From positions 1 to 56,604 of the IMG/VR virus record IMGVR_UViG_3300045988_114323: 56,604 nt of DNA. One strand, 5' to 3'. The translations under genes were made by a program, and so were the position numbers. Below the pieces are notes generated by a model that made no database searches, was not told the origin of the DNA, and saw nothing but the letters and a program-made list of their open reading frames with translations. Of the stretch, positions 1 through 56,604 are shown one piece after another. Position 1 is the stretch's first letter; every line of letters begins with the position of its first letter. This DNA is from a virus.

Positions 1-119
1 AAGCGCACTGAGAGGAATTGAAAGCAAGACGGTGGAGTCGTTGCAGAAGATTCAGAGCCAGACGGAAGCGTCTCAGAACAGTATCAAGCAGTCCATAGCT
101 GATGCAACCGAAAAAAAGA
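1..119. repeat. Terminal overlap, copy 1 (identical to 56486..56604)
   Basis: AAGCGCACTGAGAGGAATTGAAAGC...GAAAAAAAGA matches the window end base for base. Confidence 0.95.
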
Positions 120-3836: not shown

Positions 3837-4556
3837 ATGGCATACATTAAATTTTTGGGAACAAGAAAAGCATACAAAGCATCTGTTATTCCAAATGGGA
3901 ATATTGTTACTTTAAAGTTTGCTAATATGAAAGAAGTGAATACTAGCGGATTTAATTTGTACCTTGATGAAAAATGCACTGTCGATATTGGCGGTGCATC
4001 TTATCGAGGATATACTACAATGTATCGGAATGACAGCGAGACAGAAGCATACAATGGATATCAGCTGTCAAATAATGGCAGTGTGTATTCTGAGCCTGTT
4101 GCACCAACACCAGATCCAGTTGTGGAGGTTACACTGGAAGAATTAAAGGCTCAGAAAATTGCAGAAATGAATGCAAAGCAGCAAGAGGCGATACAGAACG
4201 GTATCAATGTAAAGCTGTCGGATGGTGCAACACATCACTTTACCCTTACTACTAATGACCAGATTTCACTTATGGGATTACAGACAGAAGTGGAAAAGGG
4301 AACAGAGAAAATCTCGTGGCATACATCAGACCAGTCGGAACACTGCCAATATTATAGTAATAATGATATGAAAATCATTGTTGACACAGCACTTGCACTG
4401 GTAACATATCATATTACAATGTTTAGAGACTTGCGTATTTATATCAATAGTATGCAGGACAAAGCAAGTGTGGAATCTGTATATTACGGCATTTACATTC
4501 CTGAGGAATACCAGTCAGAAGTTTTGAAAGATTTATATGCCGTACAGAATGCGTAA
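3837..4556 (+). CDS. Phage protein with DUF4376-like C-terminal domain
   Basis: RBS AAGGAAAGGA. Pattern LEELKAQKIAEMN...DGATHHFTLTTNDQISL...ISWHTSD...YHITMFRDLRIYINS resembles DUF4376 as I recall it. Confidence 0.5.
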   Translation: MAYIKFLGTRKAYKASVIPNGNIVTLKFANMKEVNTSGFNLYLDEKCTVDIGGASYRGYTTMYRNDSETEAYNGYQLSNNGSVYSEPVAPTPDPVVEVTLEELKAQKIAEMNAKQQEAIQNGINVKLSDGATHHFTLTTNDQISLMGLQTEVEKGTEKISWHTSDQSEHCQYYSNNDMKIIVDTALALVTYHITMFRDLRIYINSMQDKASVESVYYGIYIPEEYQSEVLKDLYAVQNA

Positions 4557-5000: not shown

Positions 5001-5795
5001 TTACCGGACTCCCCAGCTTCCGTCTGGATTAAGGAATCCTATTACATATCCAATTTTATCTACAATCATATCATCCGGTATGTATGCACTGTCCGTCATT
5101 AATGGCGAATACTTCCAGTGCATAGTGCCGTTTTCATATACTTTTTTCTTAATTGCAATGTGAATAGCACCGTTTTCGGTAATCACGCAACGTTCCCCAT
5201 CCAATGCCAATCTGTCCGCTGCTAAAAGCACAATTTCACCAGGCAGATAATATGGCATATAAAAATCACATGGTATTTTTAATCCGAGATATGCTCTTGA
5301 CATGACATCTTCTGGGACATCTTTTATTGTCATTGGGTCGACAGCATTTGTTGTAGCGATCACTCCATTAACTATTTGAGGGCGAAGAACAGATATATAT
5401 TTTCCCTTAGAATCAAAAGATTGGTATATTTTCTGTTGATGCCGTATAAAGTATCTTATTAGGTATATTGACTGCTCTGGCAGACCTCTTACAATACGCA
5501 CAGATTCCCTCATTTTCGGCTCCATTGTGTCAGAGCCCACTAATTCATCAATGCTTATTTCAAGTGCCTTTGCAAGGCTGATTACAGTGGATAATTTGAC
5601 ATTGTTAGAAGTTCCGTAAAGAAGAGTATTAAGCGTTGAAAACGGAACACCTGATGCTTCAGAAAGATTTTTGATTGTGATTTCTGGCGTATCTATGTAC
5701 ATACTTAAATTGTGCCGTAGAGACTCCATAAAATCACCATTTTGACAGACCGTTAAATTCGTCGAAATATCAATGCGGTTTTCTTCTCTCAACAT
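5001..5795 (-). CDS. CI-like repressor: XRE HTH plus degenerate S24 (LexA-like) C-terminal domain
   Basis: RBS AGGGGGA before ATG 5795. HTH segment ITIKNLSEASGVPFSTLNTLLYG. In the C-terminus, CDFYMPYYLPGEIVLL aligns with GDSMxPxIxxGDxVLV, with Phe at the catalytic Ser position. Confidence 0.7.
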   Translation of the reverse strand: MLREENRIDISTNLTVCQNGDFMESLRHNLSMYIDTPEITIKNLSEASGVPFSTLNTLLYGTSNNVKLSTVISLAKALEISIDELVGSDTMEPKMRESVRIVRGLPEQSIYLIRYFIRHQQKIYQSFDSKGKYISVLRPQIVNGVIATTNAVDPMTIKDVPEDVMSRAYLGLKIPCDFYMPYYLPGEIVLLAADRLALDGERCVITENGAIHIAIKKKVYENGTMHWKYSPLMTDSAYIPDDMIVDKIGYVIGFLNPDGSWGVR

Positions 5796-13318: not shown

Positions 13319-13933
13319 ATGATTATGAAAAAGGATGCATTATCTGTAGCAAAAGAGTTGGTTAAAATCTTGGAAAAACTGCATGAAAAGAATTTTGTTA
13401 TGCTTGCAGATCTTAAACCAGGCGATAAATTTTCAACAGGAATTGGAAATTTTATTGTTCTGGAACAGAAAGAAGATTGTGCTGTAATTATCACTGAGAA
13501 ATTGTATATGGAAGCCGAGATATTCGATGATAGTTGCAATGATTACAAGAAGTCATCATTAAGAGAAAAGTTCGATGGAGAAATTCTCGATGAGTTCATT
13601 GCTGAATTTGGAGAAGAAAACATTTGTGAAAACGAAGCTGGACTGGTAACAGTTGACGGACAGGAAGTTTTTGGAAAACTTTTGAATAAAGTAAGACCGC
13701 TGACATTTGATGAAGCACGCGAATATAATGATTTGTTGGTGAATGAAAAGTTGACGGATTGGTACTGGACATGTACGCCTTGGAGCACGAAAGAAAGAGT
13801 ATATGGATGTACTGTTGCAGTTGTTTCCCCGCGTGGCAATTTCAGCAACTATAATTGCAGCTTCTATATCGGGGTGCGCCCGGTTTGTATCTTAAAATCT
13901 AATCTCTTTGTATCACGAGTAAAGGAGGATTAA
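13319..13933 (+). CDS. DGR target protein 1 (C-terminal variable region, CLec-type / WW..TP...GVRP motif family)
   Basis: C-terminus WYWTCTPWS...VVSPRGNFSNYNCSFYIGVRPVCI contains VR1. It is a paralog of 13936..14526. Confidence 0.85.
   Translation: MIMKKDALSVAKELVKILEKLHEKNFVMLADLKPGDKFSTGIGNFIVLEQKEDCAVIITEKLYMEAEIFDDSCNDYKKSSLREKFDGEILDEFIAEFGEENICENEAGLVTVDGQEVFGKLLNKVRPLTFDEAREYNDLLVNEKLTDWYWTCTPWSTKERVYGCTVAVVSPRGNFSNYNCSFYIGVRPVCILKSNLFVSRVKED
13820..13881 (+). repeat. DGR variable repeat VR1
   Basis: Gap-free 62-nt alignment to the TR. All 8 mismatches fall at TR adenines. Confidence 0.9.
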
Positions 13934-13935
13934 TT

Positions 13936-14526
13936 ATGATGACGTTAACCGAATTTGGTAAAAAGCTTGAAAAATTAAATGAAGCATATGAACAGCTTAG
14001 AAAGAAATACCAGAAACCGGAAGTTGGAAACACAGTAGAAGTAGCCGGAATCAAATGGCTGGTACTGGATAAGTTGGAAAAAGGATATCTTGTGATTTCA
14101 GAAGATTTTTACGGAGAATATAAAGAATTTGATAATAGTAAAAATGACTGGAAAACCAGTAGCCTTAGAAATTACCTTAACACGAAACTTCGAAAGGAAA
14201 TTGAAGAGGATGTTGGACAAGATGCACTTGTCAAGTTTGATCGCGATTTAACTTCAATGGATGGGCAGACGGAATACGGAATTTGCGAAGACTATGTTTC
14301 TATTATTACATTTGATGAATATAGAAAATACAGAAATTTACTTGCAAATACAGAAGAATACTGGTGGACGCTTACACCTGATAGTACGTCTTGTAACGAT
14401 GATTCTCGGTGGTTGCAAGTTGTTTCCCCGCGTGGCTTTATCAACTTCTATATTTGCGTCTTCAATTTCGGGGTGCGCCCAGTTTGTATCTTTTCTTCTT
14501 CAATCTTTGAATCAGAACAGGAGTAG
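13936..14526 (+). CDS. DGR target protein 2 (paralog of target 1)
   Basis: AAGGAGG RBS. C-terminus YWWTLTPDS...VVSPRGFINFYICVFNFGVRPVCI contains VR2. Confidence 0.85.
   Translation: MMTLTEFGKKLEKLNEAYEQLRKKYQKPEVGNTVEVAGIKWLVLDKLEKGYLVISEDFYGEYKEFDNSKNDWKTSSLRNYLNTKLRKEIEEDVGQDALVKFDRDLTSMDGQTEYGICEDYVSIITFDEYRKYRNLLANTEEYWWTLTPDSTSCNDDSRWLQVVSPRGFINFYICVFNFGVRPVCIFSSSIFESEQE
14419..14480 (+). repeat. DGR variable repeat VR2
   Basis: Gap-free 62-nt alignment to the TR. All 12 mismatches fall at TR adenines. Confidence 0.9.
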
Positions 14527-14529
14527 AAA

Positions 14530-14901
14530 ATGTCAGATAGTGAATTAAGGGTAATCTTGAAAGCTAAAGAACTGGCTACTCATACATTGAGATTAACCAG
14601 CAATGCAAATAGATATCCTAAAAAATATAGATTTTCATTAGTGGATAAGATGCAGAATAAGTCAATGGAAATATATGAGATGCTGTTTGAAGCAAATAGA
14701 ACGGATATCAGAGATTACAAAAGAGACAGACTGGAACTACAGACAAAAGCAATTACATATTGTGATGAATTACTGTTTTATATAGAAATGTCGCATGATT
14801 TAAATATTTTGAATGGGAAAAGCATGGAATATTGGTCAAAAATAGTATCTGATGTGAAACATATGGCGATTGCTTGGAGAACTAAAGACAGAAAAAGATA
14901 A
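14530..14901 (+). CDS. avd: Accessory variability determinant (Avd; four-helix-bundle / 23S rRNA IVS protein family)
   Basis: 123 aa, basic and predicted helical. Lies between the VRs and the TR, as in canonical DGRs. Confidence 0.75.
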   Translation: MSDSELRVILKAKELATHTLRLTSNANRYPKKYRFSLVDKMQNKSMEIYEMLFEANRTDIRDYKRDRLELQTKAITYCDELLFYIEMSHDLNILNGKSMEYWSKIVSDVKHMAIAWRTKDRKR

Positions 14902-14931
14902 ATATGTTTTAGGTTTTCTTTTGTAAATTTG

Positions 14932-14993
14932 GTTGTTTCCCCGCGTGGCAATATCAACAACAATAATTGCAACAACAATAACGGGGTGCGCCC
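14932..14993 (+). repeat. DGR template repeat (TR)
   Basis: GTTGTTTCCCCGCGTGGC AAT ATC AAC AAC AAT AAT TGC AAC AAC AAT AAC GGGGTGCGCCC. Non-coding, located about 105 nt upstream of the RT. Confidence 0.9.
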
Positions 14994-15098
14994 ATTCTGT
15001 ATTACAGGCGGTAAGAGTAGGCGTAAAGCCGAAATCAGAATAATAGATACAAAAAGAAAGAAGACCTTCCTCTCAGAGGTAAATATAAAGGAGTACAA

Positions 15099-16124
15099 AT
15101 GGATAAGGATGTTGTCGCAGATTTTGACAATCTGTATAAGGCTTACCGAAAAGCAAAGTCTGGTAAGGGATTTAATACAAGCACTGCTAAGTTTTCAACA
15201 ATGGCATTAGATGGAGTTTCTTTGATAAAAGAGCAGTTGGAAAATCAAAGTTATAAAGAAGACAATTTAAACAGGTTCAAAATATATGAGCCGAAAGAAA
15301 GAGTGATAGAATCGTGTTCTTTTAAAGATAAGGTTGTGCAGCATTGCTTCTGTGACAATATCTTGCATCCAAAATTAGATAATTTGTTTGTCAAGTATAA
15401 TTCGGCCGGACAAATTGGAAAAGGAACGTTATTTGCAATAAATGGATTGAAGAATCACATGGAGGAATTTTATAAAATTCATGGCTGTGATGGTTGGGTA
15501 TTGAAATGCGATATACGTCATTTCTTTTATGAAATAGATCACGAATTACTGAAAAATATTCTTGATTATTATTTTGATGAAGATTTTACGAAATGGCTTA
15601 ACAGATGTTTTATTGATAATTCGGACAATCCGGGACTACCTCTTGGAAATCAAGTGGCACAGGTTTATGCATTGTTAATGCTTGATGGCATGGATCACAT
15701 GATTACCGGGGAACTTGGTATTGATTTATACGGTCGGTATATGGATGATTTTTATTTAATCCATCATAACAAGGCGTATTTGAAGTTTTGCCTGGAACAC
15801 ATAAGAGAAATGATAAATACACTTGGATTGGAATTGAATGGTAAGACACAAATTGTTCCTATCCGTAAAGGAATTAGATTTCTTGGTTTCCATCATTATA
15901 TAACCGATGACGGAAAGTATATTAGAAAGCTTACAGGAGAAAACAAAAGGAAAATCCGAAAGAAAATAAGAATATGGGTGAAATTAGTTAAGTCTGGAAG
16001 AATGCCCGAAAAGAAATTTTATGAGAAATATGGAGCATGGAAGAATCATGCATCACACGGAAATTGTATAAAACTGATACACGGCATGGATTTATATGTC
16101 GAAGAGCTGATGAAAGGAGAATGA
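15099..16124 (+). CDS. DGR reverse transcriptase
   Basis: RT motifs IRHFFYEIDH, LPLGNQVAQVYALLML and YGRYMDDFYLI (YMDD). Adjacent to the TR. Confidence 0.9.
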   Translation: MDKDVVADFDNLYKAYRKAKSGKGFNTSTAKFSTMALDGVSLIKEQLENQSYKEDNLNRFKIYEPKERVIESCSFKDKVVQHCFCDNILHPKLDNLFVKYNSAGQIGKGTLFAINGLKNHMEEFYKIHGCDGWVLKCDIRHFFYEIDHELLKNILDYYFDEDFTKWLNRCFIDNSDNPGLPLGNQVAQVYALLMLDGMDHMITGELGIDLYGRYMDDFYLIHHNKAYLKFCLEHIREMINTLGLELNGKTQIVPIRKGIRFLGFHHYITDDGKYIRKLTGENKRKIRKKIRIWVKLVKSGRMPEKKFYEKYGAWKNHASHGNCIKLIHGMDLYVEELMKGE

Positions 16125-20268: not shown

Positions 20269-21630
20269 ATGGAATGTGTCGCATATTTGCGTGTTTCAAC
20301 AGAAAAGCAGGCAGAAGAGGGCCATGGTCTTGAAAGTCAAAAGAGAGACATCGAGAACTATTGCCGAAAAAATGAATTGATTATAGTAGATTGGTATGTT
20401 GATGATGGATATACAGGATCTAATATGGATAGACCTGAGTTCCAAAGACTTATAAGCGATTGCTATGCGAAAAGAGTAAAATGTGTTGTAGCTTATAAGC
20501 TTGACAGAATATCCAGAACAATGTTGGATTCTATTTATGTAATTGAGCGTATATTTCAGCCAAATAATGTCCGGCTTGAGTGTGTCCATGACGCTGTTAA
20601 TTACAATGATCCTATGCAACAAGCATATACTCAGATGATGGCAGTATTTGCGCAGCTAGATAAAAACACAATGATGCTTCGTATGCGTGGAGGTATACTT
20701 GAACGAGTTAAAAAAGGATACTGGCCTGGCGGTGGCATTAAGCCGTATTGCTACAGATATGACAAAGAGATCGGGATACTAATTCCAATACCAGAAAGAG
20801 CCGAAAGAGCAAGACAGGCACTAGATTTGTTTATTCAAGGATATTCCGATGAAAAAATAATGCGAATGCTTGGTTTCCGAACGGAAGGAGTAGTGCGAAA
20901 CATACTTACCGGAGTAGTAAATATTGGAAAGATTAAATATAAAGGCAATGTTTATCAAGGCAGACACGAACCAATATTTGATGTGGAAAAGTTCAATCTT
21001 GGCTTGGAGATTCGGAAGACGCGAAGCAAAGCAAGAGCATATTGCCGGACAGAGCCAAATTTACTTACTGGACTGTGCTATTGCGGTGTATGCGGCTGTA
21101 AAATGAGGTACCAAAAATGGGGTTCAGACAGGAGAAAAATGTACTGCTGTTCGCGAAACCGATACTTGGATTACTTGCCAAACTATAATCATGATTGTGA
21201 CAATTCAGTGGAATGGGCTGACAAAATTGAAGAACAGGTTGAAAGCGAGATTTTAAAAATATCCCTAAATCTTTCTAGCTATAAGCCTAAAGAGAAAGCT
21301 ACGAAGCTTGAAATCATGCAATCACAATTGGATAAAAGCAAAACTAAATTAAGACGTCTTTACGAGCTGTATGCAGATGGAAACGACATGGTTCTTGATA
21401 TGATTAGCAATCTTGAGAATGAGATTGAGATATCTAAGGAAAGAATCAAAGAAGAATCTAAAAATATCCAAAAAGAAAACAAAAAAGAATATGTTTATGA
21501 AAACATAAAAAATCTTGCCGACGTCTGGGACACGATCGACAAGACAAAGAAAAATACTATATTGAAGAGTATAATCTCTAAAGTAGTAGTTGTCAACGGA
21601 AACGTTGACATTCAATTAAAATCTTTTTAG
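20269..21630 (+). CDS. Large serine recombinase (integrase)
   Basis: N-terminal resolvase motif AYLRVSTEKQ...G.GLESQ, then a recombinase domain and a Cys-rich zinc ribbon (CYCGVCGCKM...CC), then a C-terminal coiled coil. Confidence 0.9.
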   Translation: MECVAYLRVSTEKQAEEGHGLESQKRDIENYCRKNELIIVDWYVDDGYTGSNMDRPEFQRLISDCYAKRVKCVVAYKLDRISRTMLDSIYVIERIFQPNNVRLECVHDAVNYNDPMQQAYTQMMAVFAQLDKNTMMLRMRGGILERVKKGYWPGGGIKPYCYRYDKEIGILIPIPERAERARQALDLFIQGYSDEKIMRMLGFRTEGVVRNILTGVVNIGKIKYKGNVYQGRHEPIFDVEKFNLGLEIRKTRSKARAYCRTEPNLLTGLCYCGVCGCKMRYQKWGSDRRKMYCCSRNRYLDYLPNYNHDCDNSVEWADKIEEQVESEILKISLNLSSYKPKEKATKLEIMQSQLDKSKTKLRRLYELYADGNDMVLDMISNLENEIEISKERIKEESKNIQKENKKEYVYENIKNLADVWDTIDKTKKNTILKSIISKVVVVNGNVDIQLKSF

Positions 21631-36170: not shown

Positions 36171-36298
36171 GGGCGTATAGTTCAGTGGTAGAACATAAGA
36201 GTTTAGGAGATCTGGCTGTGTATACCAATGCTAGCAAAGGTAAACAGAAACTGACTGATTCGCTCTGCATGTCATGGGTTCGATTCCCATTGCGCCAT
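36171..36298 (+). tRNA. tRNA-like element with canonical acceptor, D and T arms but a 78-nt non-canonical anticodon/variable region
   Basis: GGGCGTA/TGCGCCA acceptor (G1.A72 mismatch), GTTC-AGTGGTA-GAAC D arm and ATGGG-TTCGATT-CCCAT T arm. No 5-7-5 anticodon hairpin. Confidence 0.5.
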
Positions 36299-55925: not shown

Positions 55926-56604
55926 ATGGAGACAAAAATAACTACAGTAAGTCTTGCTGCGAAAGAAGATAAATACTATGCGGATAAAACACTGTACCAA
56001 TGGAACTATGGTCAGATACTACGGATTGTAGATGCAGACCTTCCAATGGCTGTTGAAATCGGATTTTCAACTACAGAAAAATCAGGAGATTCAGACGTGC
56101 GGGTTGGATCCACTAACAACGGTGTTACTACGGTAGCAATTCCGAATAAGTTATTTGAAGAAGAACGGAGTACTGATTATAGTATTTATGCATTTGTGTA
56201 TGTTACTGATGAAAATTCTGGAACAACGGTGCATGAGATAGTCATTCCAGTAAAGGCAAGAGCGAAACAGGGTGACCCGTCAGAAGACCCAAGCATAGAT
56301 CCAAGCATTTTTAAAGATGCTATTAATGCGGTAAATGCATCTGCGGAGCGTGCTGAAATAGCTGAAAAGTCAGCAAAGGAATCAGCGGATAAAGCAAAGG
56401 AATATGCCGAGAGTGCCGGGAAAAGCAAAGGAGACGTAGAAAAAGCAAGAGATAATGCAATCTCAGCTATCGGTATAGAAAAAGAAAGCGCACTGAGAGG
56501 AATTGAAAGCAAGACGGTGGAGTCGTTGCAGAAGATTCAGAGCCAGACGGAAGCGTCTCAGAACAGTATCAAGCAGTCCATAGCTGATGCAACCGAAAAA
56601 AAGA
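55926..56604 (+). CDS. Tail fibre / BppU-like baseplate protein, N-terminal part (runs off the window and continues at 1..2089)
   Basis: AAGGAG RBS and ATG 55926. No stop codon to the window end. LYQWNYGQILRI resembles the BppU N-domain. In frame with 32..2089 across the 119-bp overlap. Confidence 0.8.
   Translation, partial: METKITTVSLAAKEDKYYADKTLYQWNYGQILRIVDADLPMAVEIGFSTTEKSGDSDVRVGSTNNGVTTVAIPNKLFEEERSTDYSIYAFVYVTDENSGTTVHEIVIPVKARAKQGDPSEDPSIDPSIFKDAINAVNASAERAEIAEKSAKESADKAKEYAESAGKSKGDVEKARDNAISAIGIEKESALRGIESKTVESLQKIQSQTEASQNSIKQSIADATEKK
56486..56604. repeat. Terminal overlap, copy 2 (identical to 1..119)
   Basis: Direct comparison with positions 1..119. It lies inside the tail-fibre coding frame. 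Confidence 0.95.

Follow-up and report, generated by a model that had tools for sequence, protein, structure and literature searches.

The diversity-generating retroelement (DGR) of Bordetella phage BPP-1 is the prototype of its kind, with the order mtd-avd-TR-brt: a target gene, the accessory variability determinant avd, the template repeat (TR) and the gene for the reverse transcriptase (RT). Its RNA architecture, including the structure named 'cPRT Stop', is known from cryo-electron microscopy (cryo-EM; bioRxiv 2023.10.23.563531), and Naorem et al. 2017 have already proposed that pairing of the primer with the IMH (initiation of mutagenic homing) sequence steers the RNA-linked cDNA to the variable repeat (VR). 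A DNA stem-loop or cruciform after the VR enhances homing in BPP-1, although it is not universal. About 13% of cassettes have two targets. Such DGRs have been published before, and the literature also describes DUF6273 as a target domain of DGRs and gut phages with small, single-domain targets of this kind (PMC10743442, PMC11792537, bioRxiv 2024.10.15.618418). We have analyzed a DGR at positions 13,319 to 16,124 of the IMG/VR record IMGVR_UViG_3300045988_114323, a viral sequence of 56,604 nt; the whole of this stretch is called the window below. The locus is a complete DGR, a well-documented type of system; its targets are two small binding proteins encoded side by side, each with ten codons subject to rewriting. 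It has the order of BPP-1, target-avd-TR-spacer-RT, as the initial annotation of the locus had read it. To a specialist it is a textbook DGR that holds no surprise, with useful comparative RNA evidence; its standout feature is its place beside DNA-replication genes rather than tail genes.

Repeats and cassette

Re-alignment gave an ungapped match of the TR (14932-14993) to VR1 (13820-13881) and VR2 (14419-14480). When the TR, its adenines replaced by N, served as a search pattern across the whole window with up to 3 mismatches tolerated, these three sites alone were found; the same pattern had 0 matches in 100 shuffles of the window, and a remote third VR, sought with it across the 56-kb genome, was not found. 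The 62-nt core of the TR consists of 19 A, 17 C, 13 G and 13 T. VR1 departs from it at 8 positions and VR2 at 12, and all 20 of these mismatches lie at TR adenines, while the 43 non-A positions are unchanged in both VRs. The chance of all 8 + 12 mismatches landing on the 19 A positions is about 5e-13 (hypergeometric). Both VRs begin at a codon boundary of their own open reading frame (ORF) and lie in frame, 17 codons (VR1) and 15 codons (VR2) before the stop. In this frame the TR reads AAT ATC AAC AAC AAT AAT TGC AAC AAC AAT AAC, which is nine AAY codons with one ATC and one TGC. The repeat coordinates, the gapless alignment, the tally of mismatches by TR base and the reading frame given in the initial annotation were all reproduced exactly by this re-alignment, tabulation and masked search.

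Relatives of the cassette were gathered by scans with the RT, which yielded 11 IMG/VR loci and one metagenome-assembled genome (MAG) of Lachnospiraceae. The order target 1, target 2, avd, TR, RT is kept in all loci that cover the region, with spacings of about 600 and 510 nt. Over 22 TR/VR pairs from 11 loci there are 251 substitutions at TR adenines and 5 elsewhere, three of the latter at the extreme 5' edge. Between loci the non-A positions of the TR shift together with both VRs; for example, TTTCCCCG of the window is TTTCGCCG in all 3 repeats of L001, its closest relative. Such joint change of the TR and both VRs is what repeated TR-to-VR copying predicts. The layout of the TR is simple, with A-free flanks of 18 nt and 12 nt around a 32-nt centre that holds all 19 core adenines. 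The next base, A14994, is an A in 11 of 11 TRs but is A, G or T among the 22 VRs, so that the copied tract is one base longer than the core (14932-14994).

Several further features of the repeats were observed. Within the 62-nt cores of VR1 and VR2, 17 of the 20 substitutions are A-to-T and 3 are A-to-G, with no A-to-C. The patches encoded by VR1 and VR2 are rich in Phe, Tyr and Ile as a result of this skewed spectrum, which could stem from selection or from a misincorporation bias of the RT; several relatives show mostly A-to-G instead. The GC-rich block GGGGTGCGCCC, common to the TR and the VRs and closing all three, is a short palindrome, CGGG-GTGCG-CCCG (13868-13884 and 14980-14996), that was flagged by a terminator scan. 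Since it encodes Gly-Val-Arg-Pro, the protein level alone may account for its conservation. Relative to the TR, several VR1 copies lack one codon (3 nt; L001:2718-2784, L005:121-188, L012:2790-2851), while VR2 copies are complete, a sign that in-frame deletions occasionally accompany or follow homing. Four target homologues (P0019, P0035, P0036 and P0037) have the body of target 2 followed, after the VR, by the C-terminal tail of target 1 (..CILKSNIFVS.VKE.), which suggests recombination between the paralogues at the shared VR/IMH sequence. A 93-aa ORF (14929-15210, + strand) crosses the TR and the spacer and enters the beginning of the RT gene (MVVSPRGNINNNNCNNNNGVRPFCIT...) and overlaps the structured RNA described below; it exists because the TR retains the reading frame of the VRs, and it should not be annotated as a gene.

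The best match of the RT among solved structures is the Bordetella DGR RT (bRT, PDB 8ub7), with E 9e-28 and 100.7 bits over residues 4-321, against E 9e-11 or weaker and at most 44.8 bits for group II intron RTs, a ceiling that also holds for other RTs. The protein matches phrog_1423 (E 3e-96) and Pfam RVT_1, and keeps equivalents of bRT R74 and Q187. By pairwise relatedness rather than by a tree, it appears closest to DGR RTs and not to those of group II introns or retrons. The DGR-type RT and the avd gene first proposed from the sequence both find support, the latter in a match to the phage Avd family (Table 1).

RNA architecture and a proposed mechanism

Directly after the shared GC-rich block the repeats part: the TR continues with ATTCTGTATTAC, the VRs with GGTTTGTATCTT and AGTTTGTATCTT. 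The TR tail ATTCTG.AT.. is present in 11 of 11 loci and the VR tail NTTTTGYATCTT in most; in the lineage of the window and in a single VR of L005, the second position of the VR tail is G. The earlier reading of these tails as IMH* (TR) and IMH (VR) was right and is consistent in all loci, and pairing with the spacer RNA now gives it a mechanistic rationale. The spacer primer strand fits the VR-side IMH (TTTTGTATC) at 9 of 9 positions in most loci, better than it fits IMH*. The counts are 9/10 to IMH and 7/10 to IMH* in the window, and 9/10 and 6/10 when the BPP-1 pairing is re-derived from sequence. We had considered this better fit as a novelty and dropped the idea, since BPP-1 is alike and the point was stated in Naorem et al. 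2017; it stands as corroboration.

An RNA alignment of 10 loci, beginning 25 nt upstream of the TR and ending at the RT start, was compared with shuffled and slid controls. Its strongest feature is an 11-bp duplex of 14912-14922 with 15056-15066, in which compensatory changes occur at 7 of 11 pairs and pairing holds in 99% of cells, far more than in the controls. A stem-loop (15069-15079) and an A-rich stretch follow directly after this duplex, the same layout as in the Bordetella cPRT Stop with its avd:Sp duplex together with a stem-loop and A-minor adenosines. One nucleotide upstream of the duplex, spacer positions 15046-15054 (GAUACAAAA) can pair with the TR tail at 14995-15003 (UUCUGUAUU); 8 of 9 positions are paired, one as a wobble, and 6 pairs are invariant. 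This pairing is analogous to that of Sp47-56 with TR118-129 in Bordetella, and by the same analogy A15054, at the position of Sp A56, is the predicted priming nucleotide and A14994 the predicted first template base. A first template base at 14994 fits the transfer boundary, since 14994 is mutagenised and 14995-14997 are not transferred. A local hairpin in the TR tail found with RNAalifold, UCUGY-AUU-RCAGR, competes with this duplex, and a change seen in L007 fits both. Another stem-loop in the spacer, at 15020-15030, is a candidate Avd- or RT-binding element. Matches in a promoter scan were no more frequent than in shuffles.

The spacer also aligns, over 15003-15145, with the Rfam RT-2 motif (RF03077; Weinberg et al. 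2017, PMC5737381). It shares with this motif the series AGUAG-hairpin-GAAAUCAG, a second hairpin and UAAAUAU upstream of the RT gene. The 105-nt spacer of the window scores 23.5 bits, and the relatives L005 and L012 score 35.0 and 27.9 bits, all short of the gathering score of 40; the motif's large 3' helix is absent here, and the model is without the long-range pairing to sequence upstream of the TR that was found in these loci. On this basis the spacer appears to be a diverged relative of RT-2, not a certified member.

From the anatomy, adenine specificity, homology of the parts, RNA covariation and database-wide variation of these loci, with the priming site, integration route and biochemical activity borrowed from BPP-1 by analogy, the following mechanism can be proposed. 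A single transcript, roughly 14912-15085, would carry the end of avd, the TR and the 105-nt spacer, and would fold through the duplexes of 14912-14922 with spacer 15056-15066 and of TR tail 14995-15003 with spacer 15046-15054. In the RT-Avd complex, spacer A15054 would serve as primer and TR A14994 or C14993 as first template base. The RT would then copy the TR toward its 5' end, faithfully at C, G and U and with misincorporation opposite A. The cDNA would remain joined to the spacer RNA, a segment of which complements the VR-side IMH (TTTGTATC) better than the TR-side IMH*, and by means of the two A-free homology blocks it would replace VR1 or VR2 and never the TR. The predicted outcome is up to 15^9 x 4, or about 1.5e11, variants of a 10-codon patch in each DUF6273 paralogue, with stop codons impossible.

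Table 1. Positions and supporting evidence for the parts of the DGR in the window
Feature	Position	Strand	Basis
Target gene 1, 202 aa	13325..13933	+	Longest ORF from 13319; VR1 at 3' end; phrog_9958 E 1e-34
VR1	13820..13882	+	8 core substitutions at TR adenines, plus A-to-G at the +1 position, 13882
IMH of VR1 (GTTTGTATCT)	13883..13892	+	Inverted repeat; 9/10 complementary to spacer RNA 15045-15054
Target gene 2, 196 aa	13936..14526	+	DUF6273 protein; VR2 at 3' end; phrog_9958 E 1e-43
VR2	14419..14481	+	12 substitutions at TR adenines; +1 position 14481 unchanged (A)
IMH of VR2 (GTTTGTATCT)	14482..14491	+	Inverted-repeat search; tail comparison across loci
avd, accessory variability determinant, 123 aa	14530..14901	+	phrog_3206 'Avd protein of DGR' E 8e-21
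Upstream strand of long-range duplex (GGTTTTCTTTT)	14912..14922	+	Covariation; analogue of Bordetella avd:Sp 'cPRT Stop'
TR	14932..14994	+	Re-alignment and masked pattern search; A14994 also copied
IMH*, TR tail (TTCTGTATT)	14995..15003	+	Predicted template-side strand of template:primer duplex; absent from VRs
Spacer stem-loop GGC-loop-GCC in AGUAGGC..GCCGAAAUCAG	15020..15030	+	Stem invariant, loop variable; match to RT-2 5' hairpin
Spacer primer strand (GATACAAAA)	15046..15054	+	A15054 predicted priming nucleotide; analogy with Bordetella Sp47-56, A56
Spacer strand of cPRT-Stop-like duplex (GAAAGAAGACC)	15056..15066	+	Covariation
Stem-loop CCTC-TCA-GAGG, then A-rich UAAAUAUAAA	15069..15079	+	2/4 pairs covary, 6 double changes; match to RT-2 second hairpin
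DGR reverse transcriptase, 341 aa	15099..16124	+	YMDD; PDB 8ub7, Pfam RVT_1 and phrog_1423 matches

Target proteins and recent activity

The two targets are paralogues, 36% identical, and both belong to phrog_9958. Given homologues of 202 aa, the start of target 1 is probably at 13325 and not at 13319, where the region of the initial annotation begins; the coordinates in that annotation for avd and for the RT with its YMDD motif are right. Target 1 has an N-terminal helix and a DUF6273-like domain. For target 2 the match to Pfam PF19789 (DUF6273) reaches 29.6 bits and so passes the gathering score, 23.5; it places residues 113-185 on positions 103-169 of the 172 of the model, and VR2 maps to the C-terminal end of this domain; target 1 scores 19.1 bits, below the same threshold. 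An AlphaFold2 model of target 2 made from a 142-sequence alignment has pLDDT 80 and pTM 0.78 (mean local and overall model confidence), and is of low confidence only around the VR; a first model from 35 sequences (pLDDT 44) was unusable and was discarded. Foldseek searches with the better model matched phage DUF6273 proteins in BFVD (E 1.8e-7) and, among solved structures, only the Thomasclavelia ramosa IgA peptidase PDB 9qa6, with its DUF6273 N-terminal domain (E 2.4e-4). Matches of the targets to S100 proteins in a profile search against PDB sequences had E 0.005 or weaker and were rejected as spurious.

Variation among database homologues of the targets was taken as a proxy for activity in place of within-population data. 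At E <1e-5, target 2 has 2,284 relatives in the protein database and target 1 has 5,278, mostly in singleton clusters. Among 38 close homologues of target 2 the mean entropy is 2.89 bits at the ten A-containing codons against 0.30 bits elsewhere, and among 49 close homologues of target 1 it is 2.95 bits at the A-coded codons against 0.24 bits elsewhere. The nearest homologue of target 1 (P0121) is identical at 192 of 192 residues that are not A-coded and at 1 of 10 that are. Overall, database homologues whose backbones are 98-100% identical differ at 7-10 of the 10 A-coded codons. Near-identical backbones with unrelated VRs imply that homing is faster than ordinary divergence, and this variation, limited to A-coded codons, supports the view that homing is probably ongoing, which the difference between VR1 and VR2 had first suggested.

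Judged from the sequences, the locus is very likely an intact DGR that is functional or was so very recently, and it is probably active at present. Five observations weigh against this conclusion. The predicted template:primer duplex contains a constant C·A mismatch, has a compensatory change in a single locus (L007) and has a broken pair in two loci. No DNA stem-loop like that of BPP-1 follows either VR when 90-nt DNA segments are folded and compared with shuffles (z -0.54 and +0.04); near the VR ends only the GC-rich block itself forms a weak palindrome. The RT motif LGNQVAQ (IGSLTSQ in bRT) conforms to LGxxxAQ, with S changed to A, and not to the usual [ILV]GxxxSQ. The Avd protein lies below curated cut-offs, with E 6e-11 and 42.6 bits for NCBIfam DivGenRetAVD (cut-off 80) and E 4e-5 for Pfam bAvd. 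Finally, the classical C-type-lectin DGR targets Mtd and TvpA were not recovered by Foldseek with the target 2 model, and hhalign of a target with Mtd showed no similarity (probability 0.1%); the targets therefore do not fall in the C-type-lectin-fold class of DGR targets (Mtd, TvpA, FGE-sulfatase type) by these comparisons.

The element could instead be a fossil, its pattern left by past mutagenic homing and its machinery in this genome no longer working. Relics do exist in this lineage. The close relative L011 (IMGVR_UViG_3300045988_089576, 4001-4228; 95% nt identity) has a DGR RT truncated at codon 75, about 3.9 kb comprising the rest of the RT, orf104 and a methylase having been swapped for 1.5 kb of unrelated genes. 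Its VRs nevertheless differ from the TR at 14 + 12 adenines, which marks it as a frozen, decayed DGR. In the window, by contrast, every part is intact, from the RT, avd and TR to the two VRs, the A-free homology blocks and the RNA helices that covary, and homing took place within the time that separates proteins otherwise about 100% identical, so that we consider a fossil improbable here. That there is no retroelement at all, and that two paralogues and a pseudo-copy diverged by ordinary mutation with selection on a binding loop, is effectively refuted by the alignment, the masked search and the 11-locus tally, and we give it almost no credence: that the variable codons form a surface patch likely to be under selection is all that favours it, but the changes occur only where a third, non-coding copy has adenine, at first as well as second positions of codons, the agreement of both VRs at non-A positions extends to third codon positions, the same pattern recurs across the loci, and RT and Avd adjoin the repeats.

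Genome position and target function

The first 119 bases of the window (1-119) are repeated exactly at 56486-56604, and this terminal overlap indicates a complete circular assembly with a unique length of 56,485 bp. The genome is that of a temperate, siphophage-like gut phage whose host is a Gram-positive gut anaerobe, probably one of the Lachnospiraceae. A large serine recombinase (20269-21630, +; phrog_95 integrase, E 4e-100) amid early/middle genes and a repressor-like gene on the opposite strand (5001-5795, -) indicate the temperate lifestyle, and some target homologues come from contigs of 280-356 kb, as would fit integrated prophages. An Rfam tRNA match (36171-36298, +; 36.1 bits, above the gathering score) spans 128 nt immediately upstream of the terminase gene; ARAGORN found no tRNA anywhere in the window, and the element may be interrupted or degenerate and tRNA-like.

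The DGR is preceded by genes for an endolysin, a repressor, an exonuclease and a recombinase, RusA, a DnaD-like protein and a G39P-like loader, and is followed by those for a C5 methylase, the serine recombinase, terminase, portal, capsid and tape-measure proteins. The C5 methylase gene is 330 nt downstream of the RT gene, and the DGR as a whole is about 20 kb upstream of the terminase gene. No match was obtained by megablast of the cassette against GenBank phages, so that an annotated close relative is not available. The five-part cassette is common to 11 loci with unrelated flanks. For example, similarity to L001 (95% nt) ends exactly at the end of the RT gene (window 16118-16124, L001:5020) and resumes about 1.5 kb further on. 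Since L001-L012 share the cassette and not the flanks, it behaves as a mosaic module. In six unrelated backbones it stands directly after replication genes (DnaD-like protein and G39P-like loader, primase/helicase, single-stranded DNA-binding protein, replication initiator or DnaB-like helicase). The downstream genes that can be named in the relatives encode a DNA methyltransferase or a phosphoadenosine phosphosulfate (PAPS)-reductase-like protein, and the cassette is never beside tail genes in the loci compared.

This position bears on what the targets do. We lean slightly towards virion-associated receptor-binding or adhesion proteins, the classical phage role (Mtd, gut-phage 'tgt2', Hoc-like decorations). 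The DUF6273 targets of other gut phages are read as receptor-binding proteins (PMC10743442; bioRxiv 2024.10.15.618418), target 1 has a weak match to a Hoc-like head decoration family (E 4e-5), the structural neighbours in BFVD are multi-domain DUF6273 phage proteins, and the modelled N-terminal helix could act as an attachment or oligomerisation handle. Against a virion role stand the distance of the genes from the terminase gene and their place amid replication genes, the recurrence of that place in all six backbones and its separation from tail genes, and the lack of a recognisable tail- or capsid-binding domain in the targets.

The targets could also be non-structural intracellular binders that act with the early/middle genes, in counter-defence, superinfection exclusion or recognition of a variable host factor; we regard this as possible but rather doubtful. 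The conserved position after replication genes favours such a role weakly, and the genes that can be named downstream serve DNA modification. There is a precedent in Quimbyvirus, which has a non-structural DGR target among methyltransferases (PMC8008677), and neither target sequence has a visible signal peptide or membrane segment. However, little weight can be put on position, given the behaviour of DGR cassettes as mobile modules; signal peptides are absent from virion proteins as well, and no homology of the targets to any known anti-defence protein was found. Because the cassette occurs only at the junction of replication and DNA-modification genes, in early regions that are otherwise unrelated, the targets may not be virion receptor-binding proteins, and a more specific suggestion, which we hold to be unlikely as it stands, is that the tandem DUF6273 proteins are paired, early-expressed hypervariable binders within the cell, directed for example against diversifying host defence or superinfection factors. 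If true, this would define a widespread class of DGR-driven proteins of an intracellular arms race in gut Lachnospiraceae phages, with thousands of database homologues; should the targets be non-structural in any form, phage DGR biology would reach beyond tropism switching. The locus raises the question of the ligands, and the site of action, of a tandem pair of small hypervariable DUF6273 proteins whose genes adjoin those for replication and a methylase.

Whichever role the targets have, the element is compact, with a 63-nt TR, a 105-nt spacer and two targets within 2.8 kb, and is rich in comparative data; being so small, it is an appealing choice for anyone who wishes to reconstitute or engineer a DGR. 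Two of its features, the upstream:spacer duplex with its covariation and the spacer primer strand that fits IMH better than IMH*, serve as an independent test of the RNA model derived from Bordetella by cryo-EM. They support that model, and also the primer-IMH hypothesis of directional homing of Naorem et al., in a distant lineage of phages of Gram-positive hosts.

Compared with BPP-1, the locus shares A-specific mutagenesis with AAY codons, a GC-rich block that closes both repeats and leads into IMH (VR) or IMH* (TR), a homologous RT, and a spacer primer strand that fits IMH better than IMH*. In both, the upstream:spacer duplex and the TR-tail:spacer duplex, the latter a predicted one in the window, are adjacent, with a gap of 1 nt here and 2 nt in BPP-1. 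BPP-1 differs in having a single 381-aa tail-fibre target where there are two adjacent small targets here, a TR of 134 nt rather than 63 nt, the C-type-lectin fold of Mtd rather than DUF6273 in its target, and a DNA stem-loop after the VR, which is missing here; its DGR lies in the tail region, whereas ours is in the replication region of a phage of a Gram-positive gut anaerobe. Closer in their targets are the DUF6273 DGRs of gut phages, namely nd4 and nd12 (tentaclin and a small 'tgt2') and those of the Faecalibacterium phages Lelie, CP11, Roos, Pioen and Toutatis. These are also phages of human-gut Bacillota, and they likewise have the VR at the C-terminus of DUF6273, one TR for two targets, and small single-domain targets flanked by short helices. 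They combine a large protein of immunoglobulin-like (Ig) domains with a small protein, or have a remote second target, in contrast to the small tandem paralogues directly upstream of avd in the window; in Toutatisvirus, moreover, the DGR is between the tail genes and the integrase, and here it comes after replication genes. Quimbyvirus ('Quimbyviridae', PMC8008677) resembles our phage in having a DGR target far from the structural module and beside DNA methyltransferase genes, but it has an additional structural target, an RT split over three frames, a Bacteroides host and a C-type lectin annotation, whereas both targets described here lie outside the structural module.

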